Shown piece by piece: positions 10,898 through 53,333 of a stretch of 64,000 nucleotides of DNA. Made by a program: the position numbers and the translations under genes. The notes under the pieces were generated by a model. That model did not search any database. It was not told the DNA's origin and worked only from the letters and a program-made list of their open reading frames with translations. Origin of the DNA: a virus (lineage: Duplodnaviria; Heunggongvirae; Uroviricota; Caudoviricetes); the IMG/VR virus record IMGVR_UViG_3300020057_001228, positions 1 through 64,000 of that record. The stretch is one strand, 5' to 3'. The stretch's first letter is position 1. Every line of letters begins with the position of its first letter.

Positions 10898-11382
10898 CTA
10901 CCCCATACGTTGTACACTGTCTTCTCTTTAGACTTAGCGTAGTCGATACAGTTAGTGGTACCGCCAGGTCTACCAGACCATAGAGCTAGGATGATGTTGG
11001 AATGATCAACGATCCAGATGTTTCGGATCTGAAGCTTCTCACCAGAGTATCCACCGGACGAGGTATAAGCTACCTCAGCGTACTCACATAACTCAACGTG
11101 TCTACGCAGCCAGTAGGGACCCCAATTGCTACCGTGGCCCTCGAAAGGTATGGCAGCTACTAAAGATATACTTAGGTTCTTAGCTGCTTGAGCTAGAGCC
11201 ATATCCCAACCCAAAGCCATACCACTGATGACTTTGGATGGGGCAAGACTTTCTAAAGACTTAGTAGCAAGAGCTACCAGCCTGTCAAACACGAGATCCG
11301 AATAAGGATCAATGGTCCCAGGAGGGATTAGACCGCCTGGTCTATGTCCCGTCCCGCCCAGTATCAGAGTCTCTTGTGACAT
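10870..11382 (-). CDS. DUF1273/YoqJ-like (SLOG-type Rossmann) protein
   Basis: LILGGTGHR...ISGMALGWDMALAQAA...AAIPFEGHGSNW resembles YoqJ-family signature. Confidence 0.5.
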   Translation of the reverse strand: MSQETLILGGTGHRPGGLIPPGTIDPYSDLVFDRLVALATKSLESLAPSKVISGMALGWDMALAQAAKNLSISLVAAIPFEGHGSNWGPYWLRRHVELCEYAEVAYTSSGGYSGEKLQIRNIWIVDHSNIILALWSGRPGGTTNCIDYAKSKEKTVYNVWGSWAEHSGLF

Positions 11383-26632: not shown

Positions 26633-26682
26633 ATAGCGTCCTCTCTACTCTCTAGGCAGTGATGCCTGTCTAATGGTGTACT

Positions 26683-26754
26683 GGGGGTGGCTGGAATTGA
26701 ACCAGCGACCAACGAATTATGAGTTCGCCGCTCTAACCACTGAGCTACGCCCCC
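26683..26754 (-). tRNA. tRNA-Met/fMet/Ile2 (CAT), no encoded CCA
   Basis: RC GGGGGCG-TA-GCTC-AGTGGTTA-GAGC-G-GCGAA-CTCATAA-TTCGT...GCTGG-TTCAATT-CCAGC-CACCCCC-A (one acceptor mismatch). Confidence 0.75.
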
Positions 26755-26901
26755 ACGAATATTAAAGACAACAGACCAAGTAGCGCGCCTGCCTGTTGCC
26801 CATTGATCCGGCTAAACATCTACAGCTTACACGCCTTCATCCATAGACATCTTTTTTGGGTGATCTGGAGGCGTAGTGCCTCTCCCGCAGCCAGATTGCT
26901 T

Positions 26902-26978
26902 TGGTACCCCGTACTGGACTCGAACCAGTGACCGTGGGATTAGAAATCCCATGCTCTATCCAGCTGAGCTAACGAGGC
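26902..26978 (-). tRNA. tRNA-Arg (TCT), CCA-encoded
   Basis: RC GCCTCGT-TA-GCTC-AGCTGGATA-GAGC-A-TGGGA-TTTCTAA-TCCCA-CGGTC-ACTGG-TTCGAGT-CCAGT-ACGGGGT-A-CCA. Confidence 0.8.
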
Positions 26979-31532: not shown

Positions 31533-31742
31533 CTAAGACCCAACAGCTGCCTCAAATAAGGCGGTATAGATGTCCTGAGACATCTGGCTGATCTCATATG
31601 CGAGATCATTCTTGAAGCGTGCGGTGACGTCCCCATTGGACGCTAACCCGGCTGCAATGGTACACAGGTGCTTGAACTGACGTTCTTGACCTTCTGTCAT
31701 CTGATCAGTGATCTCACGCTCGTCTGGATCGAGGCCGGTCAT
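31533..31742 (-). CDS. hypothetical small (69 aa)
   Basis: ATGA coupling. Confidence 0.35.
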   Translation of the reverse strand: MTGLDPDEREITDQMTEGQERQFKHLCTIAAGLASNGDVTARFKNDLAYEISQMSQDIYTALFEAAVGS

Positions 31743-32131
31743 GAGAGTACCAATCCCTTCTTTGTGAGCAGGGCTTCATGTACCTTACGCATGGTGCTGT
31801 ACATGACCGTAGGATCGCATTTGATGATGCGCGAGAGAGTCTGACCCGTAACCACGTTGTTCAACGCTTGTGAGGCAGACTGGATGTTGTGGTGACCCTT
31901 ACCGATGAACTGGAGGATCTCACAACGTACCTGACGTTGGTAGTCCCGCTGACTGATCTCGATGGTGGGTAGTGGCTCATCCAATGTGAAGTTGATACCA
32001 ACCATGGCCATCTTCTTCAGGATGTATTCGTCGTTGTTCACGAACTCGATAACCTTACGGAGTTGCTCTTCAGGCCAGACACCTTCTGGCACCATCATGC
32101 AAACGCGTAGGTTGCTGGTAATTGGCTGCAT
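31739..32131 (-). CDS. hypothetical (130 aa)
   Basis: Clean ORF. Confidence 0.45.
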   Translation of the reverse strand: MQPITSNLRVCMMVPEGVWPEEQLRKVIEFVNNDEYILKKMAMVGINFTLDEPLPTIEISQRDYQRQVRCEILQFIGKGHHNIQSASQALNNVVTGQTLSRIIKCDPTVMYSTMRKVHEALLTKKGLVLS

Positions 32132-32246
32132 TGAGCGTTTGTCCTTTCAAAAGCTCCAGGTGATGCGACTTACATCCGCCAGGAGCACACAAAGCAGCTT
32201 GAGCTTTAGTAGAGGCAGGAGAATTAGAATCCCCCCGCCTCCAACC

Positions 32247-33204: not shown

Positions 33205-33516
33205 GGTAAGCTCTCTTTCTTTTGTTCCTGAGGTCAGTATTACCGTATGGTAGCTCTGCGCTCTCGGCCGCAGCAGGCCGCTTGTCTCAACTATGTGGGG
33301 TTAGGCGTATCAGCCTGTAGCACCCACCTCTGAGAACAAGAATCATCTATTGGTATGCTGCATTAGCACACCGTATCAACAATGATCATCTACTGGTAGG
33401 CAGCATTCGCAGCATTAAGGTAAGTTCGAGAGCGGGTGGCGCTCTGAGGCACAGTCAAGAATAAAGGGAGCTTTCGCTCCCCCTATTCTCAGTTAGCTCG
33501 CAGCAAAGCTACGATC

Positions 33517-36500
33517 TTACCACTCGTCTTCACCCCACGACACGTCATCGTCCTCTTGTGCCTCAGTGTCCATCAGGTCACCGATCAGCGTGTTCACCGT
33601 ACCGAGCTGCTTGCTAACCAGCCGGCAGAGGTTGTAGAGGAATGAATCATCGAAGCCATGAACCCGAGCCGATTGCTCCATCTCATCGCTGGCAACGATG
33701 ACACAGTCAGCAACAGCCTGGGACAGCTTCTTACGACCCAGCATCCATGCAACACGGAACAGCGGAGTCAGCATGTGGTAAGGCATTTCCTGACCGTACT
33801 TATCGTACACAGGAGCCTGCACAGTGGCTTCATCAGGTGCACCATGCTTGATGCTGCGGTTCAGGTGGTTGCCCACCTTGATGGCATGAGGGAGAAGGAT
33901 GTCGCCACTGGACTTGTAGCACTTCACCTCATTCATCGTGACCCGCAGGTTGGACATCATGCCGGTAACCACGTCGGTATCCCAGAGAGGCCAGATCCAG
34001 CTCTGCATGAACTTCTTGCAGGACTCACCAACTGGCTTGCCAGCGAGACCTTTGTGCTCATACAACCATGCGCCCAGCATCATCATACGAGGATTGGTCA
34101 GACCCAGTGCGTACTGGATAGAACCACCCTCCATGAGACGATAGGCAGTACCAGTCCACCACGTGTTGGCTTCAACGCCTTCACGGATAGTTTCAAACCA
34201 CTTGTCAGCGGTCATCTTCTTGGACTTGGCGATCATCTTGTCCGCGGTGTTATTCGGGGACACAGCCTCACTGAACATCAGCGGCTCATAGACCCTAGTC
34301 CCATCACTGAGGACTTCCTTGAGGGTCTCGATGTGCTCAGCATCGTTGCCAGGCCCGTAGGTAGCCAGGTTCATGTCACCCTTGGGCAACAGGGCTTCCA
34401 GCTCCACACGCAGCTCAGCAGCGATGTCACGAGTACCAATGTTCGTGATGGGGAAGATGCAACCAGTGTCACCATCAAAGTCACCCTGGTTAACACGACG
34501 CCACTTCATCTCGTTGGCCATCATCACGTGCAGGTTGACCTTATCGTTTAGCACGATAGTGGCAACGTAGCCCACGATAACGGGATGGCGCAGCACGTAC
34601 ACAGCCTTACCGTTGAGGTCAGCGACATTGCACTTGAACTTACGGGCGAGCCGCTTGGCAATCCGTGAGTCCGGGTGGATATGGATCTCTTCCATACCAA
34701 TGCCACGAGAAGCAACCATCTTACTGGTCACACCCCAACGAGTACCGTAGACCCGACCGAAGCCACCACTCTTGGCGAGCTTAGCAGCATCAATCTTGAC
34801 GGACTGCACCAGACCAGCAACGCTGTCAGGATTAGCAGTGACCAGCTTGAGACGCAGCGCAGGGTCTGCCATCACACGCACTAGACGTGCAACAGTCTCA
34901 CCCAGCCCAGTGAGGCCAGAACCCAGGCCATCAGGCGCCGTTGCCTGCAGGACCTTATCAGCATCAATAGCTGCTGCCAGCACACCATTGACGATGATAT
35001 TAACACCCTGAGGATACAACTCCTTGACCTTCTCCAACAGTTGGACATCGGTCATCGCAGGAGTATACTCACCATGCAGGTCGAGTACATCATCACGCTG
35101 GAGCAGCAGGTTAGTACCCAAGAGCAGGTACAAGAACTGTTCACCTGTAGCAATCTTAGCTGCATTGGGGAATGATCCCAAACCAGCCAGATAGCCAAGC
35201 AGATGAGTACGCCGCACCATGTCGGGCACAACGTACTGCTTCAGCAGATCCTTACCAGCCTTGGTGAAGCCCAGGAAGAGGATCTGGTACAGCGTCATTG
35301 CTGCACTACCCACGTTCTCCTGAACGCTGGAGCTCTCAATGAGGAACGTAACCTCACCCAGGATAGCGTTGTCATCCACTGTAGTGATAGTGCAGGTAGC
35401 ATCATCAAACGTGAACTTAGCCGCATACTCAGGCTTGTCGTAGATCTCCTTGGTCGTAGCGTACACAATGGGGTTGTACACACTGCTAACCTCGACACGA
35501 CCACGACCAGTCTCCTTGAAGCGCTTGCGAAGCTGCTTGGAGGACTTGATGAGACCGTCGCCAATGTGCAGGCCTTTGAACACCTGTCCATTGATGAGGA
35601 CCTGCACACCAGCAGCTTCGTTGGTCTGCATCATAGCTTTGACAGGTCCACGACCCTTGGCTGCACCCTTATCAGTAGCCTCGATCGTCACCGTGAGCAC
35701 GAATTCGTACTCCCCTGCAACGTTCTTGGAGGCACCATGCAAGCGCATGTTCTTAACCACCTCGATGACACGACCCTCAACAGCACCATCATCGGAAGAC
35801 CAGTTGATGATATTGCCATTGAAGTCAAGCACCGGTACCTTGACGTTGTCTTCGGGTTTAGCCTTAGCAACTTCGACAAGAGCCCCATTGGCCCGTTCGT
35901 CTGCCAGGTGAGCGATGGTGTTACCATCAGCATCAGTGGAGAACGTGATCAGATCGCCAACTGCAACCAGGATATGGGAGTTCTTGGCTTCCATGAACGC
36001 CATCTCGTGATCAGCAGCACTATAGCGGTGGCTACCACCGATGGTAACCAAGCGCTTACCAACAGCCTCATCGAGGATCTCAGCACCGATGTGAGCCTGC
36101 CCACACTGAGAGATAGGAGATACAGCATCAATGACACACGGGACAGTCATTGATCCGCAGTGAGACGCAGCAGAGCTCTTGAGCAGCCCCTTGATGTTGC
36201 TACCTGCGAACTCGATCTCAGTACCCACCAGCTTAATGCCGAGAGGTCCACCATCCGTAGCGAGGTCCGTGTAAGGGATACGCAACGGGAAGCTACCACG
36301 GTTGTCAGGGATGTACCACGCGGTGGCATCTAGAGCATCCATATAGCGGCAGATCTCCACAACGTTGGGGCGATTGCCACTCAGAGAACCACGACCAGCG
36401 TGGACCTTGCCACCACGGTCCATGAAGAGACCAACCACCCCAACGGAGTACTTGGTCTTAATCAGCAGACCATCCTCATCGAGCTCGTCACGCTCACGAG

Positions 36501-37227
36501 CATCAGGACCAAGAGCCCCAGTGAACCCGAGCAGCGCACCCACAGCGTACTGAGCAGCCTTAGTCTCAGCGTGCATGGTGAGCACAGCCAGCATGATTTC
36601 CATGAACTCCTTAGGACCCTTCAACCCAGCGATGAGTTGTGGAGCAATCCCCCACTGATCCTCGGCCAGGTTAACGATAACCGTACTACGAAGCTGGGCA
36701 GTGTTCATGTAGATCTCATCATCGGAGACCCACTTGAACGTGAAGCTGGCACCGAAGGGCACCTTGACGATGAAGGTATCCTTGTCATCCTCGTCAGCCT
36801 CAACCCGATATCCCAGCTCACTGAAGATGTGTTGAGCCGTCTCAGAGCCGTTCGTGAGTTCACAGAACTTCAAGAACTCTTTCATCTTCATGGAGATCTG
36901 AACAGTCTCCTCGGACACGATCTTACGAGACTCTGGCTGAGCCTGGTGGATCTCCTTGAGCGCGGAGGCTTCACCCTTCTGGAGCTTAGCACCCTTACCA
37001 ACCACAACACGCACGTGAGGCATGTTGAACAGTGTAGTGAGAAGGATCTGCTTGTAGGCAGAACCAGTGTGACCGCCAGGGTTCCAGGAAGACAAGTCTT
37101 CCTTCTCGATGACAGCACTAACAGGGATACCGTAGTAGTCAGCAACGAGATTGAGGTCTGCGCATTGATATGCGTAGACAGCGAGACCGGTGTAGTTGAT
37201 ACTCATGTGATGTTGTCCTTTCAGCAC
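33517..37227 (-). CDS. 1236-aa protein with RNAP beta-prime-like double-psi beta-barrel catalytic motif (putative two-barrel RNA polymerase-like protein)
   Basis: LRHPVIVGYVATIVLNDKVNLHVMMANEMKWRRVNQGDFDGDTG (aa about 878-922; DFDGD at 34468-34482) parallels beta-prime NRAPTLH...KAIQLHPLV...NADFDGDQ; upstream RLHGASKNV resembles beta GRHGNKGV. Confidence 0.45.
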   Translation of the reverse strand: MLKGQHHMSINYTGLAVYAYQCADLNLVADYYGIPVSAVIEKEDLSSWNPGGHTGSAYKQILLTTLFNMPHVRVVVGKGAKLQKGEASALKEIHQAQPESRKIVSEETVQISMKMKEFLKFCELTNGSETAQHIFSELGYRVEADEDDKDTFIVKVPFGASFTFKWVSDDEIYMNTAQLRSTVIVNLAEDQWGIAPQLIAGLKGPKEFMEIMLAVLTMHAETKAAQYAVGALLGFTGALGPDARERDELDEDGLLIKTKYSVGVVGLFMDRGGKVHAGRGSLSGNRPNVVEICRYMDALDATAWYIPDNRGSFPLRIPYTDLATDGGPLGIKLVGTEIEFAGSNIKGLLKSSAASHCGSMTVPCVIDAVSPISQCGQAHIGAEILDEAVGKRLVTIGGSHRYSAADHEMAFMEAKNSHILVAVGDLITFSTDADGNTIAHLADERANGALVEVAKAKPEDNVKVPVLDFNGNIINWSSDDGAVEGRVIEVVKNMRLHGASKNVAGEYEFVLTVTIEATDKGAAKGRGPVKAMMQTNEAAGVQVLINGQVFKGLHIGDGLIKSSKQLRKRFKETGRGRVEVSSVYNPIVYATTKEIYDKPEYAAKFTFDDATCTITTVDDNAILGEVTFLIESSSVQENVGSAAMTLYQILFLGFTKAGKDLLKQYVVPDMVRRTHLLGYLAGLGSFPNAAKIATGEQFLYLLLGTNLLLQRDDVLDLHGEYTPAMTDVQLLEKVKELYPQGVNIIVNGVLAAAIDADKVLQATAPDGLGSGLTGLGETVARLVRVMADPALRLKLVTANPDSVAGLVQSVKIDAAKLAKSGGFGRVYGTRWGVTSKMVASRGIGMEEIHIHPDSRIAKRLARKFKCNVADLNGKAVYVLRHPVIVGYVATIVLNDKVNLHVMMANEMKWRRVNQGDFDGDTGCIFPITNIGTRDIAAELRVELEALLPKGDMNLATYGPGNDAEHIETLKEVLSDGTRVYEPLMFSEAVSPNNTADKMIAKSKKMTADKWFETIREGVEANTWWTGTAYRLMEGGSIQYALGLTNPRMMMLGAWLYEHKGLAGKPVGESCKKFMQSWIWPLWDTDVVTGMMSNLRVTMNEVKCYKSSGDILLPHAIKVGNHLNRSIKHGAPDEATVQAPVYDKYGQEMPYHMLTPLFRVAWMLGRKKLSQAVADCVIVASDEMEQSARVHGFDDSFLYNLCRLVSKQLGTVNTLIGDLMDTEAQEDDDVSWGEDEW

Positions 37228-37299: not shown

Positions 37300-38160
37300 T
37301 TAGAATCCCTCGATGGTCATGTCGGTGATGCCCATCTCGGCCGAAGCCTTCTTGGCAGCCTCCAACACGTCCAGGTTCACATCCTTGTTGGGGTGAACAC
37401 GGAAGCGCTCGAACCACGCAGCCTGGCCTTCCGTGGGATCAACCACAGCCGTAGGATGCGTGCGGAAAATGGGCTCCTTGCGAGTATCCGATTCAACGGA
37501 GTACTCCAAGACTTCCTGGATAGTACCGATGTAGGCCATAGCCCCATCGTTGTCCTTCTTCAGTTCAAAGGTACCCTTGAAGCTGAAGGCGAACTTCTTG
37601 TACAGCCCAGCAGTCTCACGCAGCCAGAGCTTCTTGGCAGCCTGCTTGGCATCCAAGGCAGACATACCAACCATGCTGACGTTACGCTCAGCAAGGAACT
37701 TGGTGTACTCCGCTTCCTCGCTCAGGTGGAGACCATAAGCCTCCTTGAGCATCTGGCGGATCTGGTCGTTGATACCACCAAAGACGGCATCTTCCATCTT
37801 GACGTAGGTCCGAACCGTGGCTTCCGCTTTGGTCGGATCCAAGATAGCCATCGGGTTCTTGAACCACGGGGTTTGGCTCTTGAAGATGAAGTTCTTGATG
37901 AAGTCATCTTCGTTCTTCGACAGGCCGTTGAAGTACAGCTTCATCATCCCAGCGTCAGCAGTCTTCGTGCTGTAGTTGGGGAAGTGCTGAACTCCCTTGA
38001 TGGTCTTCGGGAAGATGTTAGCCTCAGCATAGTACGTCGGGACGACGATCTTGCTGGCCTCCTCACCCATGAGGAAGGTCTTGATCTTGTTAGTGAAAGT
38101 ACCCATTTGGTACCTCCCTTTCTGAACACTGGTGCATACTGTTGAGCCGACATGACCCAA
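37300..38160 (-). CDS. hypothetical protein (286 aa) co-transcribed downstream of RNAP-like gene
   Basis: Clean ORF; terminator at 38183-38210 separates it from upstream cassette. Confidence 0.5.
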   Translation of the reverse strand: MGHVGSTVCTSVQKGRYQMGTFTNKIKTFLMGEEASKIVVPTYYAEANIFPKTIKGVQHFPNYSTKTADAGMMKLYFNGLSKNEDDFIKNFIFKSQTPWFKNPMAILDPTKAEATVRTYVKMEDAVFGGINDQIRQMLKEAYGLHLSEEAEYTKFLAERNVSMVGMSALDAKQAAKKLWLRETAGLYKKFAFSFKGTFELKKDNDGAMAYIGTIQEVLEYSVESDTRKEPIFRTHPTAVVDPTEGQAAWFERFRVHPNKDVNLDVLEAAKKASAEMGITDMTIEGF

Positions 38161-38182: not shown

Positions 38183-38210
38183 CCAAAAATAAAGGGGCGT
38201 AAGCCCCCTT
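38183..38210 (-). terminator. intrinsic terminator (GGGGGCTTACGCCCC + T-tract on minus strand)
   Basis: Hairpin followed by TTTATTTTTGG reading on minus strand. Confidence 0.6.
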
Positions 38211-38224
38211 ATTAAGATGTTTAG

Positions 38225-38470
38225 TTAGAGTGTGTCAGCGTACGCACTCATACCCTGTACAGCATTCAATGACCGAAAGTACGTGATGACCAGCGTCCTC
38301 TCCTTACAGATTAGGAGAGTCCAATCTTCGCACTGGATTTCCGCCTGGAATCCCCCAAGCGAATCGTGTTCCTGATGCATCCAGGCTACCAAGCCTGCGA
38401 GACTGGTATCTTCCAAATGATCCATGATAGGGTCGTGGACAGATACCAGTCTCGCAGGCTTGGTATTCAT
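38225..38470 (-). CDS. small protein (81 aa, start MNTKPARL)
   Basis: Start aligned with conserved 5'UTR element copy (AAAGGAAACTCAATG). Confidence 0.45.
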   Translation of the reverse strand: MNTKPARLVSVHDPIMDHLEDTSLAGLVAWMHQEHDSLGGFQAEIQCEDWTLLICKERTLVITYFRSLNAVQGMSAYADTL

Positions 38471-38487
38471 TGAGTTTCCTTTCATAA

Positions 38488-38527
38488 GAGCTCCACGTAG
38501 AGCTCGTCTATACGCTAAAGAGCGGGT
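38488..38527 (-). promoter_or_regulatory. conserved 40-bp upstream element, copy 1 (GAGCTCCACGTAGAGCTCGTCTATACGCTAAAGAGCGGGT)
   Basis: Identical copy at 39012-39051, each directly upstream of a minus-strand RBS/start. Confidence 0.5.
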
Positions 38528-38544
38528 TTGAAGCGTTAGCTTCG

Positions 38545-38832
38545 TTAAGCGGCCCCCATGGCAGGCTGGTGGACAGGCTTCACTCCTTCCTGTGATAGTG
38601 TGGGTTGCTGAACGTCTCGGTGGTAGTATTCAGAGGTGTAAGTAACAGCACGCTCTAAGTTACCATCGGCATCGAACTCCCACGCCTGGAAGTGTGCTAG
38701 GCTGTCACACGTGACAATAGTCTTACCATCAGGCATCAGTTCAATCACCTTTGTACCTTTGGCGCTGCCGAACGGTGGCACGCAATCACAGTTGCTGACT
38801 GTGATTGTTTCCCATGTCCATTTCGTGTTCAT
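38545..38832 (-). CDS. small protein (95 aa, start MNTKWTWE after GGAGGG RBS)
   Basis: Track ORF extended upstream in junk frame; RBS GGAGGGCTAACCATG. Confidence 0.45.
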   Translation of the reverse strand: MNTKWTWETITVSNCDCVPPFGSAKGTKVIELMPDGKTIVTCDSLAHFQAWEFDADGNLERAVTYTSEYYHRDVQQPTLSQEGVKPVHQPAMGAA

Positions 38833-38837
38833 GGTTA

Positions 38838-38996
38838 GCCCTCCACAAAGATCTTGAACTTGCGACCTTCGCAGATGTACTTCCACAGCAGCCCCAGACT
38901 GCAGACAGAGAACTCCAGCCGGTAATACTGTGTAACCCTATCCTCCTCAGGATAGAAGGCCACATTCTGGGCCATGTTACGTTGGTTCATTTTCAT
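38838..38996 (-). CDS. small protein (~53 aa, MKMNQRNMAQNVAF...)
   Basis: Starts right after 40-bp element copy 2 with GAAAGGGAACACAATG; not in track (short). Confidence 0.35.
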
Positions 38997-39011
38997 TGTG
39001 TTCCCTTTCAC

Positions 39012-39051
39012 AAGAGCTCCACGTAGAGCTCGTCTATACGCTAAAGAGCGG
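39012..39051 (-). promoter_or_regulatory. conserved 40-bp upstream element, copy 2
   Basis: Identical to 38488-38527. Confidence 0.5.
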
Positions 39052-39069
39052 GTAAGTTTGAATACCTAC

Positions 39070-39486
39070 TTAGAGGTATTCCCCCTCGATGATCACGTGT
39101 TCACATTCAGTGAGAAAGCAGGAGCAATCACCATAAGCACCACCGCATTCATGTTTGTCAGTAGCCAGGTGCAAACGATCGCGCATGTTAAGGACCTGAA
39201 CGAAGTGTTCAGCACAGTGTTCACCCATGCACTCAGCCACATTGAGATCGCACAACAGGACATCCTTGGTGGTGTAAGGCTCATCACCTTCATAACTACG
39301 GGTCATCACAATGAAGATAGGCTTGGCAATGGATGTGACCGTACCCTTGATCTCACCACGGATCTTCACATCACCGAGACCGTTGTACCACAGCCCACCG
39401 ATCATCCTGCATGAGCACCCACAGATGCCACACCAGCCATCCATCGTGCAGGTTTGGCAGTAGCACTTGCATTCGTTTCCCATTGT
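39070..39486 (-). CDS. cysteine-rich protein (~138 aa; MGNECKCYCQTCTMDGWCGICGCSCR...)
   Basis: About 20 Cys incl. CxCxC, CxxC, CGxCGCxC clusters; RBS GAAGGGAGAA. Confidence 0.5.
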   Translation of the reverse strand, partial: TMGNECKCYCQTCTMDGWCGICGCSCRMIGGLWYNGLGDVKIRGEIKGTVTSIAKPIFIVMTRSYEGDEPYTTKDVLLCDLNVAECMGEHCAEHFVQVLNMRDRLHLATDKHECGGAYGDCSCFLTECEHVIIEGEYL

Positions 39487-39530
39487 TGTTCTCCCTTCAC
39501 AAGCTCGTACCAACGTAGGTATGAGCGTCT

Positions 39531-39558
39531 ATCAAAAGAAAAGGGGCCGAAGCCCCTA
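39531..39558 (-). terminator. intrinsic terminator (GGGGCTTCGGCCCC + T-tract)
   Basis: Hairpin then TTTTCTTTTGAT on minus strand. Confidence 0.6.
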
Positions 39559-39566
39559 TGGAATAC

Positions 39567-39776
39567 CTACACCTGCCAGCACCAGTACAGCTCTTCAGCC
39601 GCCCATTGCCAGTGGTCAGATAGGAATTCATACCTCTCATGCGTCCAGTCGTACAACCTCCCAAAGGGAAGCATACGAAGGGCCACACCCCATACTTTCC
39701 AGTATGGTTTGAGGTAGGATTCTACAGCCATCCAGAACGCCACGATGCAGTGCAACGCAGTGATGATGATGGTCAT
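39567..39776 (-). CDS. small membrane protein (69 aa, Trp-rich)
   Basis: TTTTGAAAGGAGAGGTCTATG RBS/start; TM helix. Confidence 0.45.
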   Translation of the reverse strand: MTIIITALHCIVAFWMAVESYLKPYWKVWGVALRMLPFGRLYDWTHERYEFLSDHWQWAAEELYWCWQV

Positions 39777-39788
39777 AGACCTCTCCTT

Positions 39789-39866
39789 TCAAAAGTAGCT
39801 TAAGCCAGCTACCAAGCAATACTGCGCCGAGGCAGTATCAAAAGAAAAGGGGGCTTACGCCCCCTT
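39789..39866 (-). repeat. 78-bp composite element copy 1 (two hairpins + terminator)
   Basis: Duplicate at 40731-40808 with 1 mismatch. Confidence 0.6.
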
Positions 39867-39871
39867 TGATG

Positions 39872-40120
39872 CTACATACCCATAGCATCGTAGAATGCAG
39901 CGGTCTCCTCACGACGGGCAGCATCATAATGCTCACGCAGAGAGATAGACACATCATGATGATCCAGCGCAGCCTTAGCATCACTGCACACTACAGTCAT
40001 CACCTCAAGGCGGTTCTGCGGCTCACCCTCAAGCGCAGCCTCTTCGCTGGTCATGCTTATGAAAGCACTTCCAACAATGAGGTTGCAGACGGTGAGCGCA
40101 GTCGCGATGATGATACGCAT
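39872..40120 (-). CDS. small secreted/membrane protein (82 aa, MRIIIATALTVCNLIVGSAFI)
   Basis: TTTTGAAAGGACAATACTATG RBS/start; N-terminal hydrophobic segment. Confidence 0.45.
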   Translation of the reverse strand: MRIIIATALTVCNLIVGSAFISMTSEEAALEGEPQNRLEVMTVVCSDAKAALDHHDVSISLREHYDAARREETAAFYDAMGM

Positions 40121-40179
40121 AGTATTGTCCTTTCAAAAGAGGCTTAGCGAGCCCCCGCGCAACACAGAGCTGAGTCTAT

Positions 40180-40206
40180 GTCAAAAAGAAAGGGGCTTTC
40201 GCCCCT
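40180..40206 (-). terminator. intrinsic terminator (GGGGCGAAAGCCCC + T-tract)
   Basis: Hairpin then TTTCTTTTTGAC. Confidence 0.55.
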
Positions 40207-40215
40207 AATCATCCT

Positions 40216-40374
40216 TACGGATGCGAGTCGATCGCATCTTGCAGGTTCGTAAAATCATCCATCATTTCAGCAGCATGATGAGCAGACACGTCAGCCTGAT
40301 GACCTTGAAGATCATAGGTGCCCATCAAACCAACAACAACGATGGCGATGATGATAGCAGTGATCTTACCCATG
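40216..40374 (-). CDS. small membrane protein (~52 aa, MGKITAIIIAIVVVGLMGTYDLQGHQ...)
   Basis: GTGAAAGGATGTACACCATG RBS/start; not in track; antisense plus ORF 40221..40454 rejected. Confidence 0.4.
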
Positions 40375-40412
40375 GTGTACATCCTTTCACAAGCTCAATC
40401 GTGTTGAGCATA

Positions 40413-40440
40413 TATCAAAAAGAAAGGGGCTTACGCCCCT
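40413..40440 (-). terminator. intrinsic terminator (GGGGCGTAAGCCCC + T-tract)
   Basis: Hairpin then TTTCTTTTTGATA. Confidence 0.6.
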
Positions 40441-40447
40441 CAGATGA

Positions 40448-40657
40448 TTATTGACCCACAATCATAGCACACACATACCATGTGCGCATGAATGCGAACA
40501 TCCATACGATCATGGCGAGCACCTGCATACGCAGATAGCTCCTCGCAAAGCGGCTATTCAAAGCCACAATGCTACCTTCAATGTCAAGCATGTACGCCGT
40601 GGATGAATCCACGTACACAGTAAATTCAGACATGGCCTTGTCCTCGTACTTGGTCAT
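40448..40657 (-). CDS. small membrane protein (69 aa, MTKYEDKAMSEF...)
   Basis: Preceded by palindrome element and GAAAGGAATGCATCATG. Confidence 0.45.
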   Translation of the reverse strand: MTKYEDKAMSEFTVYVDSSTAYMLDIEGSIVALNSRFARSYLRMQVLAMIVWMFAFMRTWYVCAMIVGQ

Positions 40658-40678
40658 GATGCATTCCTTTCATAAGCA

Positions 40679-40694
40679 CATGCACATGTGCATG
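40679..40694. promoter_or_regulatory. perfect 16-bp palindrome CATGCACATGTGCATG, about 25 bp upstream of start codon
   Basis: Same palindrome at 42122-42137; degenerate copy at 41874-41898. Confidence 0.5.
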
Positions 40695-40700
40695 AGCGAT

Positions 40701-40730
40701 AGTCAAAAAGAAAGGGGCTTACGCCCCCTT
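40701..40730 (-). terminator. intrinsic terminator (GGGGGCGTAAGCCCC + T-tract)
   Basis: Hairpin then TTTCTTTTTGACT. Confidence 0.6.
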
Positions 40731-40808
40731 CAAAAGTAGCTTAAGCCAGCTACCAAGCAATACTGCGCCGAGGCAGTATCAAAAGAAAAGGGGGCTTAGG
40801 CCCCCTTT
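40731..40808 (-). repeat. 78-bp composite element copy 2
   Basis: Near-identical to 39789-39866. Confidence 0.6.
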
Positions 40809-40818
40809 TCTTTTTATG
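40777..40818. terminator. bidirectional intrinsic terminator (GGGGGCTTAGGCCCCC flanked by T-tracts on both strands)
   Basis: AAAAGAAAAG upstream and TTTTCTTTTTAT downstream on plus strand. Confidence 0.55.
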
Positions 40819-41857
40819 CGTAAGCTTCCTCCCACTCGGAGGCGTATGCGCCTCCAACCCATGGGTCTACTACCTCATCGACTACCCGGTCGTAGCGGGT
40901 AAGCGGCAATCCCATTGCCTCTGCCAGATCTCTGGCGAACTGGGGTGGATCTTCTCCTAGATACACCACAGATTGGTATACAGGGCTCTCTATAAAAGCC
41001 TCGATATACCAGTCCTCTGTCATGGAGTCGGACATCCGGTCGATGTCCCCCCAATAGCAGACTTTGACCAGACCCAGCATCCTGCTGGATATCCGCCCCT
41101 TGTCTGCTGTGCACGCGTCCCCCGCGTACGCCTTTAGGAGGACTGTCTTCGTGGTATCTACCACGAGCCCTACCTTGGCCACCTCCCCGGCCAGTCCCAG
41201 GGACTGGCCGAAGCGAAACGCCTCGGCACTTACCGGTCGTCCCGGCGCTGCTTCGAAAGCAGCGATGTCCGCCACGGTCGCCCCGCGCCCGTAGGCGCCC
41301 ATCCACCTTACGGTGGTGGGATGGGAGGACCTGCTCTCTTTCCCCACCTTTTCCCAATACGGAGCTGCGGCTGCCAACGCAGCCTCAGCTAGGTGTGCCT
41401 CCCAGAGGAGGATTTCCTCTGGCCACATTACTATGTCCAGTAATGCGGCCGTTTCCGCCGCCTGGGCGGCGGCCCAGACGTCTGCGCCCAGTATCACCTG
41501 GGTGTATACCCCGACCGCGGTCGCGACCGGGTAGTCGCCGGCGAGGATGCCGGCGATGTCGAGCCCCGCTTGCAGGGTCTCTGCTACCTCCCGGTAACGG
41601 AGCCCCTGCTTGACAAGCCCGTAGGCTTGTCCCGACAGCTCGGGGCAGAGCTCTACTATGTGCCCAGCCGCCTCTAGGGTGGCGAAGTCTGTGGTATTAA
41701 CCCACAGGATGGCGGCCTCTGCCGTCGTCAGACGACGGTTGAGGCCAGACGCCTTGAGGGCGTCCTTGAGGACACCCGCCTCACGCTGGATCCAGAGTGC
41801 GCCGCACTCGGCGCCCCGGGCGGCGATGAGGGCGGCAATAGTGTTCTTCTTGGTCAT
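40814..41857 (-). CDS. Ala-rich hypothetical protein (347 aa), highest-GC gene in window
   Basis: Clean ORF; starts MTKK after same GAAAGGAATGCATCATG leader as 40448..40657. Confidence 0.55.
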   Translation of the reverse strand: MTKKNTIAALIAARGAECGALWIQREAGVLKDALKASGLNRRLTTAEAAILWVNTTDFATLEAAGHIVELCPELSGQAYGLVKQGLRYREVAETLQAGLDIAGILAGDYPVATAVGVYTQVILGADVWAAAQAAETAALLDIVMWPEEILLWEAHLAEAALAAAAPYWEKVGKESRSSHPTTVRWMGAYGRGATVADIAAFEAAPGRPVSAEAFRFGQSLGLAGEVAKVGLVVDTTKTVLLKAYAGDACTADKGRISSRMLGLVKVCYWGDIDRMSDSMTEDWYIEAFIESPVYQSVVYLGEDPPQFARDLAEAMGLPLTRYDRVVDEVVDPWVGGAYASEWEEAYA

Positions 41858-41902
41858 GATGCATTCCTTTCATAAGCACATACACACACGTGCATGAGCG
41901 AT

Positions 41903-41932
41903 AGTCAAAAAGAAAGGGGCCGAAGCCCCCTT
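41903..41932 (-). terminator. intrinsic terminator (GGGGGCTTCGGCCCC + T-tract)
   Basis: Hairpin then TTTCTTTTTGACT. Confidence 0.6.
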
Positions 41933-41986
41933 TGATGCTAATACCCGCGTTGAGTGTGTATATCACTCAACGCAACATCATTGTTG

Positions 41987-42099
41987 ACTAGGCGTGCGGT
42001 TACGCACGCCACACACTGCGCACACGCAGCACCACCGCACGTCTTTCGAAGTAGACGTGCATACTTAACCCCCCGAACGAACAGTTCAACGATGACCAT
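41987..42099 (-). CDS. micro-ORF (~37 aa, MVIVELFVRGVKYARLLRKTCGGAACAQCVACVTARL)
   Basis: Driven by third palindrome/GAAAGGA leader copy; coordinates +/-1. Confidence 0.3.
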
Positions 42100-42121
42100 G
42101 TGATACATCCTTTCATAAGCA

Positions 42122-42137
42122 CATGCACATGTGCATG
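42122..42137. promoter_or_regulatory. 16-bp palindrome CATGCACATGTGCATG, copy 2
   Basis: Identical to 40679-40694. Confidence 0.5.
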
Positions 42138-42517
42138 AGCAGTAATCAAAAAGAAAGGAGGCATAGCCCCCATAGATGTTTAGAACATCACATCATCATC
42201 TCCATCCCTTCGCTGATGATGCGCATTTTGTTTTCCTGTCACAGCACCTGAATTGTTTTTTCAGGTAGCGCTAACAGTATGGGTAGGGGGGTAGGTCCCA
42301 TCCCATATAAAGGACTCGTCTCAACTAGAAGCTTTTAACCCACAGGTTACTAGCCTCACTCCGTGCTCCCGCACTCCGTTCGTACAATGTTCACATCGTA
42401 CAGTGTTCATACCTAACGCACTAGGTTCCCTCCACCCAGGTAAAAATATGTACAGGAGTATTACACCAGCGGTCACTAGTGGGTCCCATGCCTAGCACAG
42501 GGCCCACCAGCAGCCTC

Positions 42518-43119: not shown

Positions 43120-43148
43120 TTGACACATGGTCATCTAATAGATATTGT
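43120..43148 (+). promoter_or_regulatory. sigma70-like promoter candidate (TTGACA-N17-TATTGT) facing the plus-strand regulator gene
   Basis: ttgaca at 43120-43125, tattgt at 43143-43148. Confidence 0.35.
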
Positions 43149-43285: not shown

Positions 43286-43320
43286 GAGCGGCAGGTGCTT
43301 GTTTCCTCCACCTGCCGCTC
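43286..43320. promoter_or_regulatory. perfect 12-bp inverted repeat GAGCGGCAGGTG...CACCTGCCGCTC just upstream of RHH gene RBS (operator or attenuator hairpin)
   Basis: Seen directly; followed by TTTCTATATC. Confidence 0.4.
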
Positions 43321-43344: not shown

Positions 43345-43668
43345 ATGAGACACGGACGCGTTCCTAAAGCTGCCAGTAAGACTTCCAAAACGAAAGACAG
43401 GAACCAGTTCAACTGCTACCTCACTGAAGAGTACGCAGATTACTTAAGATTCCTGTCTACGAAGAAGAATGTTTCGATCGGTGAGTTTATAGAGTCTCTC
43501 CTAGAGCTTTATAGGATGGACACTTTAAACCCAGTCATTTCCAGACTAACCGAGAGGCTTACTGCTGAGGATATACCTGAGAAGGTGATTAGCCAGCTAC
43601 CATTGCTAGCTAAGAGAGTAGAGTCGCTCATTAGCGCCAATGCTTCCCCCGCTTCTCCCAGTTGTTGA
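43345..43668 (+). CDS. putative ribbon-helix-helix (Arc/CopG-like) DNA-binding regulator
   Basis: NQFNCYLTEEYADYLRFLSTKKNVSIGEFIESLLELY has beta-strand then helix pattern of RHH; only plus-strand gene in first 53 kb. Confidence 0.4.
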   Translation: MRHGRVPKAASKTSKTKDRNQFNCYLTEEYADYLRFLSTKKNVSIGEFIESLLELYRMDTLNPVISRLTERLTAEDIPEKVISQLPLLAKRVESLISANASPASPSC

Positions 43669-43915
43669 GGTATCGCTGTTTGTTAGAGTACTTACTCCGA
43701 GCAGCCTCTTGAGCGGCTATTCTCTTCTGCCGTTCAGCTTCTTCTACGGCTTCCTTAGCTGCATGTAGCTGTTCGAAGGGTGCTATGCCTTTATAGCCGC
43801 ACCGCTTACATTTCCACCTGCCCCAACCTGGGAGTAGGCCTTGTCCACCACCAACGATAACCCACTCAAACTCAGGGCAGTTAGGGCACTCCAACAGATA
43901 CCTCCTGAACAGCAC
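43631..43915 (-). CDS. Zn-ribbon protein (CPNC...CKRC) with basic coiled-coil tail
   Basis: Two CxxC pairs. Confidence 0.45.
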   Translation of the reverse strand: MLFRRYLLECPNCPEFEWVIVGGGQGLLPGWGRWKCKRCGYKGIAPFEQLHAAKEAVEEAERQKRIAAQEAARSKYSNKQRYLNNWEKRGKHWR

Positions 43916-44436: not shown

Positions 44437-47400
44437 TTACTGGTTTACTGTGCTGTTATCCACTGTGTCCCTTAGATTCGTATACGACAGGTCTCCATCT
44501 TCGCCGTCTGCAAAGGTGATGTTAGCCAAGTTGCCAGGCGAACCATCGATGTAGACTTCACTCCCATTTTGATCAACCAGTGAATTGACTTGAGTAAGAT
44601 CATCAGCCAGTCCTTCCATATATCCTGTAAGCATGTCGATTTGGCTCATAGCCCCCGCAGTGATATCTCCGAGTAGATCTTTAGCTTTCTTGGTAGCACC
44701 ACTACCCATCAACCTCTCAAGAGGCTTCTGTGCCAGTACGGCAGCGAAGGTGGAGGCAACTCCACCGACGACGGTCCTACTCCACACGTTCCTACTAGGT
44801 ATCCTTAGAGCAGCAGCAGCTACTCCTTCAGCCATGATACCAATACCCATAGAGGCAGCCATGATTCCAGCTGCGTGTAGCTGTTTGTCATGAGAGTTGT
44901 TTAGGAGCATACGAGTCATAGCCTGTGGTGAGTTCATAGCTATACCATAAGCAGCACCTTCCGCTATGTCTTCGTAACGTACCTTCTGGTGGTTGATAGC
45001 AGCTCCTAGAGCAGATCCTAAACCACCACCAAGTCCACCGATCATTACGTTCAGTGTGGTAGCACCTGATTGATTTCTAGGGTTATGAGGATCAGAACCG
45101 ATAGCCTTGTTCAACCTACCCTCTACCTTGTTCCAGAAGAAGTTAGTAGGATCGCCACTCCTGATCTCGAAGCGTCTCCGTAGGCCCTCTTCGATACCAG
45201 CAAAGTTCTGTAGTAGCTTCTCTAGCCCTGGCGCATCGTGGTCACCTGTTAAGGCGGTACCAGACTGTACACCAAAGACCATAGACTGCCGTGAGAGCTT
45301 ACGCCTCTGGTTATCACTTAGAGAGTTGTTAGCAGCATTCATCAGAGACTTCTCTGACATATCAGAGCTAGCACGCTGCTCAGCATACTTACTTAGCATG
45401 GTGCCTAGACCAGAGTTAGGATCCATAGCATTCATAGCAGCTTCTAGAGCAGGCATGGTGTGCTTGTCTGCCACCGCACGCTCTAGCAGGCTCTCTAGGA
45501 CTACTACGAGCTCCTTAGGGTGTTGTGCTAGATGAGGACGACCTGCTAGCTCCATGAGAGCTGTAGACTGTACAGATAAATCGAAGTGACTATTGTTCTC
45601 TATTGAGAACCTACCACCAGGACCTACCGTACCAGCGTGCTCACGAACACTCTCAAGGTACTGCTTCTTCTTACCCTGCACCTCAATGAATCTGTCTAGA
45701 ACAGCGAAGTCACCATCATCTACAGAGAACAGCTCGGTTAGTCTGTTCTGGAAAGCCTTCTGCATCTTGTACTCAAGAGAGCTGATCCTACCGCCACCCT
45801 GCTTTTTAGCTGTAAGGTCAGGAACACCAGTCTCTTCATGTACGAACATAGCAGTGGCGTGCTGGTGTACGAACTCAGTGAACCCCAGGTACATGCTGCT
45901 ATTCTTACCCATGGTCTTCTTGAGCTCAGCAAAGGTAGTGAACCTATCTGCTGTACCAAGCTTGGACTCATCAAGGGTCTTACGGAAGTCCATGGCGATA
46001 TCGTCAGCAATGATCGTGTTCTCTAGAGTATGGAGATCGATCTTCTGACCCTTACCAAACTTCTTGTTCAGCATGGCATCCATGTTGTATTCGCTGAACT
46101 CTTTAGCAGCTACTAAGGTGAAGCGCTTCTGAGCTTCCTTCATACCGTTGTGGCTTAGCTGACGACGTTTCTCAGCGTCTGGGTAGCTCTCGTGCTTATC
46201 TCCGTGCAAAGTATCATCTAACACATCTCCGATAAGATTACGTAGCACACCATCGACTGGCATGTTGTCACTGATCATCGCGTGTAGGTAGGAAGCAGTC
46301 TTGGCACCAGTGATGTTAGCCATAGCTGCCTTAGCACCACTACCACCGTGATCTTTAGAGAGTGCACCTAGCTGAGCTACAGTGCTGATACCCTTAGGTT
46401 TCATAGCGTCACGAGGCATCTGCGCTAGGGTCTTGATGAACCAGGAGAACTTCTCCTTCTTAGTTAATCCACCTTCGTTACGTACCTTCTTTGACCCATC
46501 AAAGTAGGTCATACGGTACTTATCATCATCTAGCCCACTCAGCACGTTAGTCATCGTCATCATGTCGTATGACACGTTGAATGCTTTACCGATGATCTCA
46601 GTACCAGCTACACCTACGTACTCCTGCATGAACCGGAAGTGCTCTTTGTTAAGAGCTACAGGGTTGGATACGTTCTGAGTAAGCCCACTTAGGGCCCTGT
46701 CAGTAACAGTTCTGGAGATATCCATGTGCATCTTACGACGTGCTTCTGGAGAGACGTCCTTAATCTTGTTTGTGCTAGTCTTATCCTCGTGAGCCTTAAC
46801 CTCAGCTAGATAGTCCATGAAGTAGCCAGCACTACCGTCGTAGAGCTCACGTACCTGTTGGATTACATGTTGAGATCTGTATAGGATGTCAGCCTGCTCT
46901 GTAGTGTTCTTATCAGCAATAGCTTTATCGAACGCCATGCTCAAACCAGGTACTGAGGCGTACTTCTCAGCGGAACGGACTAGCAGACGACCATTGTTAG
47001 CATCAGCTACAAACTGGTGCATAGTGTGGTACTGCTTATCAATTCCGTCAGCACTGTAGTTCTTGAGGAAGTTGATATCCTGTTGAGTTAGGCCAACAGG
47101 TACGTTCTTACCAGTGGCCCTAAGAGCAGCATTCTTCTTCACACGCTCTCTCAGAGCCTCACGTGTGCGCTTCTTACCCTTTAGAGCTGTGTACTTACCA
47201 ACATCTAGGAAGGACGCTTGGTCTCCATCCCAGTCTCCAAGAGACATAGCCATAGCTGTCATGCTGGTCAGGATGATCGACTGGTTATCTTTGCCAGATA
47301 AGGTTATGTCACTCAGCTTGTTGAGATCCTTCAACATCCCGTACTCTTTCATGTTGAGTACTAGAGATGGAGCATACTCAGAACCTAGAGGAGCACCAGC

Positions 47401-53238: not shown

Positions 53239-53333
53239 TCAAGCATCTCCAGCTGGTATATGTGTGTTGCATTACTATCTAACCATATGTATAGTATTGA
53301 CTGAGCGCAAGCTAGTATTTCTGAGGAGATCGT

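Follow-up and report, generated by a model that had tools for sequence, protein, structure and literature searches.

A repeated terminator, hairpin, and leader unit in a small-gene array of an uncultured jumbo phage: a candidate stop and restart signal

T4-type phages carry PeSL units, in which a G(n)-loop-C(n) terminator is followed by an A/T-rich stretch, a promoter, a Shine-Dalgarno sequence, and ATG (PMC2839356, PMC4122927). These units cluster in hyperplastic regions between small ORFans, occur in repeated, mosaic, and degraded "half" forms, and have been proposed to serve both as gene insulators and as recombination patches for shuffling (PMC2839356, PMC4122927). Mini-circle formation and promoter and terminator activity have been shown experimentally (PMC2839356). 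The subject here is a set of comparable units in an uncultured jumbo phage, an orphan and apparently lytic, represented by positions 1 to 64,000 of IMG/VR record IMGVR_UViG_3300020057_001228 (hereafter the window, 64,000 nt in all). The units lie in an array of about 4 kb (38.19-42.17 kb) that holds ten small genes (52-137 amino acids [aa], plus one of 347 aa), and all elements of the array act on the minus (coding) strand.

The favoured explanation, to which we assign a probability of roughly 0.55, is that the units make the array a series of insulated cassettes within a hyperplastic region, each stopping one transcript and allowing a phage polymerase to re-initiate the next. Transcripts of the upstream gene would stop at the first hairpin (hairpin 1), and transcription would restart in or just after the T-rich tract that follows. 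Given a restart at that point, the new mRNA would begin with the second hairpin (H2), which ends 2-3 nt before the ribosome-binding leader; as a 5' end, H2 could protect the mRNA or offer a point of translational control. The units, being repeated and self-sufficient, would also act as homology patches, allowing genes to be duplicated, deleted, captured, and shuffled without disturbing their neighbours.

The likeness to PeSLs extends to several features: the order of parts within the unit; clustering in a hyperplastic region beside ORFans; repeated, mosaic, and half units; a GC stem-loop ahead of a putative promoter part; and a Shine-Dalgarno sequence with a start codon at the 3' end. There are also differences. 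The array units lack sigma70 -35/-10 elements, having only TTGAYA, which is itself missing in one relative (R2, below); they add a covarying H2, fixed beside the UGAAAGGA leader; and the phage is not T4-like, with a Mu-type portal, a capsid distantly of the Ma-LMM01 type, and a predicted two-barrel RNA polymerase (RNAP) of its own. Moreover, mini-circles and promoter and terminator activity are experimental facts for PeSLs, whereas the array units are known from sequence alone. By analogy, then, the array units appear to work like PeSLs, the closest known kind; they are not members, because the defining sigma70 promoter and the phage type both fail.

A second parallel is phage P23-45, in which an injected two-barrel RNAP, part of a giant virion protein, transcribes a small cluster of pre-early genes (PMC10770324). 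Those genes have a conserved AT-rich promoter and a terminator motif, and include the gene for a second, non-virion two-barrel RNAP (PMC10770324). The layout, a cluster of small genes with a two-barrel polymerase gene, matches that of the array. However, the proteins and motifs of P23-45 have no detectable sequence similarity to those of the window phage; the array terminators are of the ordinary intrinsic type, whereas those of P23-45 are a special 26-nt motif; and the giant protein is an established virion RNAP there but a motif-based candidate here. The array also resembles morons, autonomous accessory genes bracketed by their own transcription signals (putative in the array), although morons are single prophage insertions with host-type promoters and the array has 8-10 tandem units with a shared signal that is not host-like. 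Comparison with morons and phage-RNAP promoter arrays had been drawn in the initial annotation of this DNA. It pointed the right way: the neighbouring gene is predicted to encode a two-barrel RNAP fold, and no sigma70 promoters above chance accompany the units.

Anatomy of the unit

In the direction of transcription, the spacers contain, in order: a stop codon; 7-10 nt; hairpin 1; a T-tract ending TTG; H2; CTTNTGAAAGGA; 6-10 nt; and ATG. In finer detail, hairpin 1 is followed by T3-4-C-T4-5-GA, YW, N4, and CTCR, and then by H2, in the form of one or two more hairpins; the unit closes with GC/TC-TTN-TGAAAGGA, again 6-10 nt before ATG. (In the window phage, the T-tract is followed by AYW-N4-CTCA.) The layout of independently terminated mini-operons with a common 5' leader, proposed in the initial annotation, is indeed seen in this region, and the individual elements recur where that annotation placed them or 1-4 nt away. 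They include the 16-bp palindrome CATGCACATGTGCATG, at exactly 40679-40694 and 42122-42137; an exact 40-bp repeat (38488-38527 and 39012-39051), which extends to 62 nt at 95% identity; and a duplicate that had been given as 78 bp and is found to be 83 nt long at 98% identity (39785-39867 vs 40726-40808). These repeat families are the sole sizeable multi-copy direct repeats in the window, and a window search found no recurrent exact 9-12-nt words outside the array beyond a few scattered copies.

Hairpin 1 was also correctly described as a terminator of one design, GGGGC-loop-GCCCC: the exact form GGGGC-N4-GCCCC occurs eight times in 64 kb, always within 38194-41929, with a degenerate copy at 42157-42171. 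A GGGG..CCCC-type hairpin plus U-tract, present in 9 of 11 spacers, has the form of an intrinsic terminator, with a UUCG or GNRA loop in the sense RNA and a U-tract of 9-10 nt; these are predicted terminators. In a standard scan, the 34-46 kb region gave 23 terminator-like matches vs 6.7 +/- 3.1 in shuffles. A stricter scan of the whole window gave 11 minus-strand terminator-like sites: nine fall within 38192-42171, a tenth (33465-33482) comes just after the neighbouring gene for a 1229-aa protein (below), and the last, located elsewhere, is weak. The composite tail CCCC-TTTYYTTTTGAYW-N4-CTCA has eight matches (with at most two mismatches) vs 0.00 expected from 100 shuffles.

The same features emerge when the window phage is compared with four related lineages (described below), five lineages in all. 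The terminal base of the T-tract is G in 36 of 40 units (P = 1e-13), and the loop of hairpin 1 is UUCG or GNRA in 25 of 37 units on the sense strand, compared with 3 on the other strand. Among units chosen by hairpin scan, the stems of hairpin 1 differ between units and lineages yet compensate: 96% of cells are paired, and double-sided changes occupy 66 cells vs 15 in shuffles. Stem variants include GGGGAC/GUCCCC, GGGGCC/GGCCCC, GGGGAGCC/GGCUCCCC, GGGGAAGC/GCUUCCCC, and GGGCUAC/GUAGCCC. (A strand test comparing G.U with A.C pairs is circular for hairpin 1, the scan having admitted G.T only.) Rfam returned nothing at gathering thresholds and, at an E-value threshold, only sub-threshold matches driven by the terminator.

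The leader shared by the genes, likewise reported earlier, is represented by TGAAAGGR, which occurs ten times in the window, on the minus strand only, 6-10 nt before ATG. Eight of these belong to the array, and the remaining two stand ahead of the gene for the 1229-aa protein, the putative polymerase, and the gene at 32131. It constitutes an unusually long purine stretch before the start codon (UGAAAGGA), whereas ribosome-binding sites elsewhere in the phage are of the ordinary AGGAG type. In most units, minimum free energy folds pair the U-tract with the leader (UUCUUUUU with GAAAGGAA), as in a riboswitch-like trap for the Shine-Dalgarno sequence. This candidate was rejected as an incidental match of U-rich to purine-rich sequence, because the pairing shows no covariation and units c9 and c10 keep the leader without a U-tract; in relative R1 the leader faces UUUAUUUUU, with A where the window phage has the pairing C. 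Also rejected was a kissing interaction between the UUCG loop of hairpin 1 and CGAA in the H2 loop: loop 1 varies (GAAA, GUAA, UUCG) while the H2 loop is constant.

H2 is marked by its position and pairing. Of 11 genes with the leader, 10 have an H2 whose 3' end falls 2-3 nt ahead of UGAAAGG, with folding energies of -6.5 to -17 kcal/mol, and the sequence upstream of leader-bearing genes shows more structure than that of 56 control genes (Mann-Whitney P = 4e-4). The stems are unrelated between sub-families: CAUGCA/UGCAUG, GCUCAA/UUGAGC, GAGCUC/GAGCUC, and GUAGCU/AGCUAC. In the relatives, H2 mostly consists of an A(C/U)GAA-type pentaloop on unrelated stems of 5-8 bp. Across the five lineages, with the loop motif A[CT]G[AC]A (a motif noticed before being tested) as the only anchor, 72.7% of cells in the flanks are paired, compared with 48% in shuffles (none of 500 as high) and 37-47% with slid partners. 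Double compensatory changes are found in all eight H2 pairs. Pentaloop hairpins in the relatives number 15 in the sense direction, compared with about 3.5 expected, and 2 in the antisense direction, compared with about 2.5. The loops of the window phage have drifted (CACGA, UACGUU, UACGUG, CAUG). Judged by its covarying stem, its conserved loop, and its place near the ribosome-binding site, H2 is a well-defined, putatively regulatory RNA (or DNA) element.

Stable hairpins and strong Shine-Dalgarno sequences that stabilise 5' ends are known from the ompA 5' untranslated region (UTR), the SP82 and aprE leaders, and the cryIIIA STAB-SD. The array has in common with them a stable hairpin directly upstream of a strong, extended Shine-Dalgarno sequence (at 5' ends that are predicted in the array); those are individual cases, however, whereas the array repeats a module with a conserved loop. 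In certain units of the relatives the ribosome-binding site is presented differently, a small hairpin displaying the Shine-Dalgarno sequence in its loop, as in GTTAGC-TATAGGAG-GCTAAC (L041 5388-5430; L039 9230-9257).

The palindrome had been described as operator-like. It is not a shared DNA operator; its three copies are the H2 of one sub-family, units c1, c2, and c4 (the c2 copy degenerate), and it is the structure of H2 that is kept, together with the loop in the relatives, rather than the sequence, the stems being unrelated between units. These observations bear on an explanation in which the palindromes and repeats are bound as DNA by a phage repressor, such as the ribbon-helix-helix (RHH)-like product of open reading frame (ORF) 43345-43668, to place each mini-operon under tight control. 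A perfect 16-bp palindrome that is present twice, with a degenerate third copy, has the look of an operator; a probable RHH/Arc-like protein is encoded divergently upstream of the array in every lineage that reaches the region; and the window's only good sigma70-like promoter lies upstream of this ORF. However, at least six H2 sequences with no relation to one another occupy this place in the units, the palindrome being one. Because pairing rather than sequence is conserved across lineages, one repressor could not bind all H2 elements as duplex DNA. The tandem GAACAYTGTACGA repeats upstream of the array would make a more natural RHH target, and repressor control through the units is improbable.

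Hardly credible is an artefact, whether mis-assembled repeats or matches that piled up by chance. It is true that two short-read assemblies of the window phage, independent of each other, break at the array edges (38515 and 42111), and that the internal order of units rests on one 198.8-kb assembly. Nevertheless, shuffle controls lead to an expectation of zero matches; the same architecture is found in four independent lineages from other samples; and all ORFs show coding signal, the best score falling in the annotated frame for 10 of 10. The breaks are not peculiar to the window phage. Logan assemblies end inside a repeated unit at window position 38515 and at L037 2890 (the start of L038), and at or beside the first array gene at window position 42111 and at L039 6298 (the start of L040). 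Such arrays break assemblies, and are therefore probably under-represented in metagenomic contigs.

Related lineages and gene turnover

No deposited phage has DNA-level similarity to the window phage. Scans of phage, IMG/VR, and metagenome DNA found single unrelated terminators only, at loci that tblastx showed to be unrelated. A word-indexed protein search matched the 1229-aa and 347-aa proteins only to themselves, and alignment scans with a zinc-ribbon protein encoded near the array yielded only the already known relative from IMG/VR and nothing from isolate genomes. An exhaustive HMMER search with the 1229-aa protein, on the other hand, found 34 relatives. Four related lineages were recovered: R1 (L037), R2 (L039), L041, and L042. 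All share the synteny of the window phage: a giant protein, a few genes, the small-gene array, a gene of 200-270 aa, and a protein of 1130-1230 aa. Their polymerase-like proteins are 50-29% identical to the 1229-aa protein, and their GC content reaches 59%. Nearly all array spacers in the four lineages carry the same unit at the same genomic position.

While the architecture persists, the genes do not. The genes flanking the array are in the same order in the window phage and R1, with 37-63% identity; within the array, only g8 and g9 have homologues in R1, reversed and separated, and only g3 has one in R2. A homologue in one or other of the two relatives was thus found for only 3 of the 10 array genes. 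The array itself bears marks of past rearrangement: an empty unit (c3e); units without hairpin 1 (c9 and c10); duplicated units; a 62%-GC gene (g2) whose 5' region and first three codons copy its neighbour's; and first and last terminators that share the flank CTAAACATCT. These repeats and remnants are, from their sequences, scars of duplication, deletion, and capture. Gene turnover and its scars had escaped the initial annotation. Taken with the unit anatomy, they make it somewhat better than an even bet that the array is a hyperplastic accessory-gene region composed of insulated expression cassettes, with recombination at the units as the putative cause of turnover.

Turnover between conserved flanks, along with an empty unit and duplicated units, might also be produced by a mobile element, the units being the ends of small cassettes (integron attC-like, or akin to miniature inverted-repeat transposable elements) moved by a recombinase, and their terminator shape incidental. 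The imperfect inverted repeats downstream of each gene recall attC sites. However, scanning the proteins encoded around the array turned up neither integrase nor transposase, and precomputed Pfam matches for genes of the relatives' loci list none either. The hairpins differ from attC sites as well: GC stems of 14-22 nt with RNA tetraloops and U-tracts are the marks of RNA terminators, not of 60-140-nt attC folds, and the strand preference of the UUCG and GNRA loops is that of an RNA. No target-site duplications were seen. Cassette mobility of this sort is very improbable, more so than repressor control.

Promoters, polymerases, and the restart

What would restart transcription within the array? 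Sigma70-type promoters are at chance level across the window. When TTGAYA, at the end of the T-tract, was taken as a -35 element, no unit had a -10 hexamer 16-18 bp away, and an extended -10 does not fit either, the mismatches falling at the key positions A-11 and T-7. A resemblance to T7-like promoters (ATAGACTCA vs ACGACTCACTATA) is short and absent from most units, and no T7-type RNAP was seen. Because there are no sigma70 promoters, a gene for a two-barrel RNAP is adjacent, and a giant protein with a GDxDGD motif is encoded upstream, the restart would most likely be made by a phage polymerase rather than by the host enzyme.

The adjacent gene (33517-37206, minus strand) encodes the 1229-aa protein and has an array-type leader, TGAAAGGA, at 37216-37223. 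The protein has no sequence match in Pfam, PHROG, or PDB. It contains GDFDGD at residue ~909; GDxDGD is in the consensus of 30 relatives, and the family consensus reads RHP...GDxDGD...FPI. An alignment-based AlphaFold model has a pLDDT of 84 (a single-sequence model, at 34, was unusable), and RNAP beta'/Rpb1 accounts for 50 of the 50 top Foldseek matches. By its modelled fold, the gene encodes a previously unrecognised two-barrel RNAP homologue. In L042, a full unit stands directly before the polymerase-like gene.

The giant protein (2933 aa; 44437-53238, minus strand) is encoded upstream of the array and has homologues at L017 10001-19024 and L039 1-4751. GD[WY]DGD (residue ~2002) and G-x-R-x4-KGV (residue ~1130) are invariant in a 36%-identical homologue; there is also a weak PLD-like stretch (residues 484-610). 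The protein has no Pfam or PDB sequence match, and profile comparisons were not significant. A bolder version of the favoured explanation, tentative and on the whole doubtful, gives this protein the leading part: injected with the DNA, it would transcribe a "pre-early" class made up of the accessory array, the 268-aa gene beyond it, and the gene for the second, non-virion two-barrel polymerase with the same leader, using the units as bifunctional stop/start signals. It would start at the T-rich tract ending TTG and stop at hairpin 1, and it would recognise, or be controlled through, H2 with its A(C/U)GAA pentaloop. Here H2 might act either as extruded single-stranded DNA, as in the hairpin promoters of the N4 virion RNAP, or as nascent RNA. 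If this were true, the unit would provide a new RNAP family with a promoter/terminator pair that is compact, portable, and based on structure.

Several observations weigh against restart within the units, or against particular parts of it. No known promoter consensus fits the units, and the -35-like TTGAYA is without a -10 at any spacing. In R2, TTGAYA is missing and the T-tract abuts H2; promoter determinants, if any, must therefore overlap the T-tract and H2. In the window phage the strict pentaloop motif is not enriched (3 vs 3.3 expected), and the H2 strand test gave 7 G.U vs 3 A.C, from few pairs. The giant protein is a candidate injected virion RNAP from two short motifs; hhalign, comparing it with the RNAP family, aligns the motif at a probability of 7%. 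Among crAss-like phages, the one comparable virion two-barrel enzyme whose early promoters have been examined is that of phi14:2, and the early transcripts of that phage have no common motif. Finally, L037 and L038 are identical genomes, as are L039 and L040, and gain/loss breakpoints could not be placed on units.

The main rival to stop/restart cassettes dispenses with internal promoters. Transcription would begin at one upstream promoter, with hairpin 1 as a leaky terminator or as a 3' stabiliser left after cleavage in the U-rich linker; H2 would be an RNA element for a phage factor (a nut/boxB- or put-type antiterminator, a processing site, or a translational operator). In a translational-operator variant, one protein would switch the whole gene class on or off through H2. 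Units without a recognisable promoter are readily accommodated, as is the lack of room between U-tract and H2 in R2, and the 350-nt non-coding region with tandem repeats upstream of c1 could hold the single entry promoter. Hairpins bound by RNA-binding proteins usually combine a variable stem with a conserved loop, as H2 does in the relatives (with a pentaloop), and H2 is fixed 2-3 nt from the ribosome-binding leader. RNase E prefers single-stranded A/U-rich sites, and the U-rich linker between the hairpins is such a site.

The resemblance of H2 to lambda nut and HK022 put sites is real: a short stem and a purine-rich pentaloop, with the stem varying and the loop kept; a place in the 5' part of terminator-containing units; and, 9 nt ahead of H2 in c9 and c10, a match to the boxA consensus, CGCUCUUUA. 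It is also partial. In place of GAAAA or GAAGA, the H2 loop has A(C/U)GAA; the boxA-like string is confined to those two units; and lambda needs one nut site per operon, so that a repeat before every gene is unexpected. Nine strong terminators in a row, each having a GC stem of 6-9 bp, a stable tetraloop, and 9 U, would leave distal genes silent barring very efficient antitermination, and no N-like, Q-like, or endonuclease gene was identified. The module of H2 and leader also stands where there is no terminator: in c9 and c10, ahead of the polymerase gene, and at the first array gene of R1 and of R2. Nor does a single-promoter scheme account for the invariant G at the end of the T-tract. Read-through or processing from a single promoter is the alternative to be taken most seriously, and an unlikely one.

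The array from end to end, and its significance

The window phage carries about 53 kb of minus-strand genes ahead of a structural module, which runs on the plus strand from 53.9 kb and encodes a Mu-type portal (PF06074), a prohead protease, and an E-type major capsid protein. The capsid protein is ~30% identical to those of Ma-LMM01-type freshwater cyanophages, a weak hint at the host. Four tRNA genes lie in the minus-strand block (Phe, Met, Arg, and one, at 544-617, found by Rfam only), in two small clusters (544-777 and 26681-26978, minus strand). The same arm as the array encodes a BCS1-like AAA ATPase (BCS1_N + AAA; 11342-12580, minus strand) and an SPFH/Band-7 protein (4089-5024, minus strand), accessory functions that are unusual in a phage. 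Between the giant gene and the divergent structural module, the intergenic sequence 53239-53333 is kept in L017 (9790-9870; ACTATACATAT.GTTAGAT...ATGCAACA) and probably holds the promoters of both arms.

Among the genes between the giant gene and the array are the following two. The zinc-ribbon protein (43631-43894, minus strand; L017 19558-19842) has CxxC...CxxC and WVIVGGGxGLLPGWGRWKC, and at 63% identity between lineages is far more conserved than its neighbours. The 107-aa ORF (43345-43668, plus strand) is divergent, and stands on the opposite strand upstream of the array in R1, R2, and L041 as well. PHROG Arc-like (E = 0.01) and, weakly, Arc repressor (E = 0.45, positions 1-38) match the protein; Pfam RHH_3 matches two of four family members (best E = 0.0018, below the curated threshold), and a QFNxY motif is invariant in the family. 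The earlier assignment as RHH-like holds up: the ORF is conserved and probably encodes an RHH/Arc-like DNA-binding protein. Upstream of it lie the only good sigma70-like promoter in the window (TTGACA-17-TATTGT, 43120-43148, plus strand) and, between promoter and ORF, a 12-bp perfect inverted repeat (43286-43320).

All features from here on are on the minus strand. A non-coding stretch of ~350 nt (42172-42517) precedes c1, with several hairpins and tandem GAACAYTGTACGA repeats at ~42386-42414, on which the RHH-like protein could act. The stretch may be the entry promoter/operator region of the array. Also upstream of c1 is a remnant of 12 codons (ATGCGCATCATCAGC...), similar to g5 at its 5' end. 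Unit c1 (42100-42171) begins with hairpin 1 at 42157-42171 (GGGGGC-UAU-GCCUCC; it has one G.U pair and is valid only in the minus sense), followed by the T-tract and box (42136-42156), the palindromic H2 (42119-42140), and the leader TGAAAGGA (42108-42115). It serves g1 (41938-42099; 53 aa, 4 Cys). Unit c2 (41858-41931) has hairpin 1 at 41914-41931 with a UUCG loop, the box TTGACTATCGCTCA, a degenerate palindromic H2, and a leader; its 5' region is identical to that of c4, the first three codons, ATGACCAAG, included.

Next comes g2 (40814-41857), which encodes the 347-aa, Ala-rich ORFan; the protein was its own sole match among 5.8 billion proteins in the word-indexed search. With a GC content of 62% (72% at third codon positions) vs ~49% for the phage, g2 is probably a recent capture from a foreign, high-GC source. 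The "empty" unit, c3e (40732-40808), is a near-exact copy of c7; its leader, ..CTTTTGAA, runs into the c4 hairpin rather than into a gene, and its own hairpin (40785-40810) is predicted to be a perfect bidirectional terminator. In c4 (40658-40731), hairpin 1 (40710-40731) has a GUAA loop and is followed by the box, an H2 that is the palindrome at 40679-40694, and the leader. The g3 product (40448-40657; 69 aa) has a C-terminal hydrophobic segment and is 39% identical to its R2 homologue.

Unit c5 (40374-40441) has a GUAA loop in hairpin 1, the box TTGATATATGCTCA, an H2 of GCUCAA-CACGA-UUGAGC, and the leader; g4 (40215-40373) follows (52 aa, N-terminal hydrophobic segment). In c6 (40121-40206) the hairpin 1 loop is GAAA, and after the box come two downstream hairpins, one abutting the T-tract and the other the leader; g5 (39872-40120; 82 aa) has an N-terminal hydrophobic segment and a 5' end like that of g6. 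Unit c7 (39777-39867), the source copy of c3e, has a GUAA loop, two downstream hairpins, and the leader. It precedes g6 (39567-39776; 69 aa, Trp-rich, N-terminal hydrophobic segment). Unit c8 (39484-39557) has a UUCG loop, the box TTGATAGACGCTCA, an H2 with the loop UACGUU, and the leader TGAAGGGA; g7 (39070-39483) encodes 137 aa with 15 Cys.

The two half units hold the 40-bp repeat. Unit c9 (38997-39069; repeat at 39012-39051) is of the c8 type minus the 5' arm of hairpin 1, and so has no terminator; it retains ATAGACG, H2 (GAGCUC-UACGUG-GAGCUC), and the leader. It is followed by g8 and g9 (38545-38996; 53 aa and 95 aa), a two-gene operon with no unit between. Unit c10 (38471-38544; repeat at 38488-38527) is of the same degraded type. 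The last gene, g10 (38225-38470; 81 aa), contains a perfect 25-nt inverted repeat just past its start codon (38387-38411 and 38441-38465, with a 29-nt spacer), which would form a very stable mRNA hairpin or a DNA cruciform. The last array terminator, c11 (38192-38209), has a UUAC loop, a UUUAUUUUUGG tail, and a 5' flank, CTAAACATCT, in common with c1. The picture of small membrane or Cys-rich proteins drawn at the outset is right in kind (four array proteins have a strongly hydrophobic segment, one has 15 Cys, and the 347-aa protein is Ala-rich), and the small proteins measure 52-137 aa.

Downstream, the array is bounded by a conserved 268-aa gene (37300-38106), whose 37%-identical R1 homologue is in the same position. 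Beyond the gene for the 1229-aa protein, the terminator stem of unit c12 (33445-33482), GGGGAGC-GAAA-GCUCCC[U], departs from the array type but is compensated; UUAUUCUUGACUGUGCCUCA and another hairpin come next. A leader of ~240 nt (33205-33444) precedes the next gene downstream of the polymerase and includes internal direct repeats, TACCARTAGATGAT, and a block, CACCCGCTCTCGAACTTACC, that is kept in R1 (L037 9719-9975); this leader could be a structured 5' UTR or a small RNA. An array-type H2 with the leader CTTTTGAAAGGA (32142-32153) lies ahead of a 130-aa gene (31739-32131).

The array suggests that modular evolution of the PeSL type is not confined to T4-like phages with host sigma70 promoters, and that insulated cassettes are also found in an unrelated clade of uncultured jumbo phages apparently running their own transcription. 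The unit is a precise candidate promoter/terminator signal for a new family of phage two-barrel RNAPs, with 34 relatives, split forms included, none of them annotated; promoters for such enzymes are notoriously hard to find. Moreover, small ORFans of the membrane and Cys-rich kinds, likely host-takeover or anti-defence factors, are abundant in the array, and its units may be used as markers to find such genes in metagenomes.

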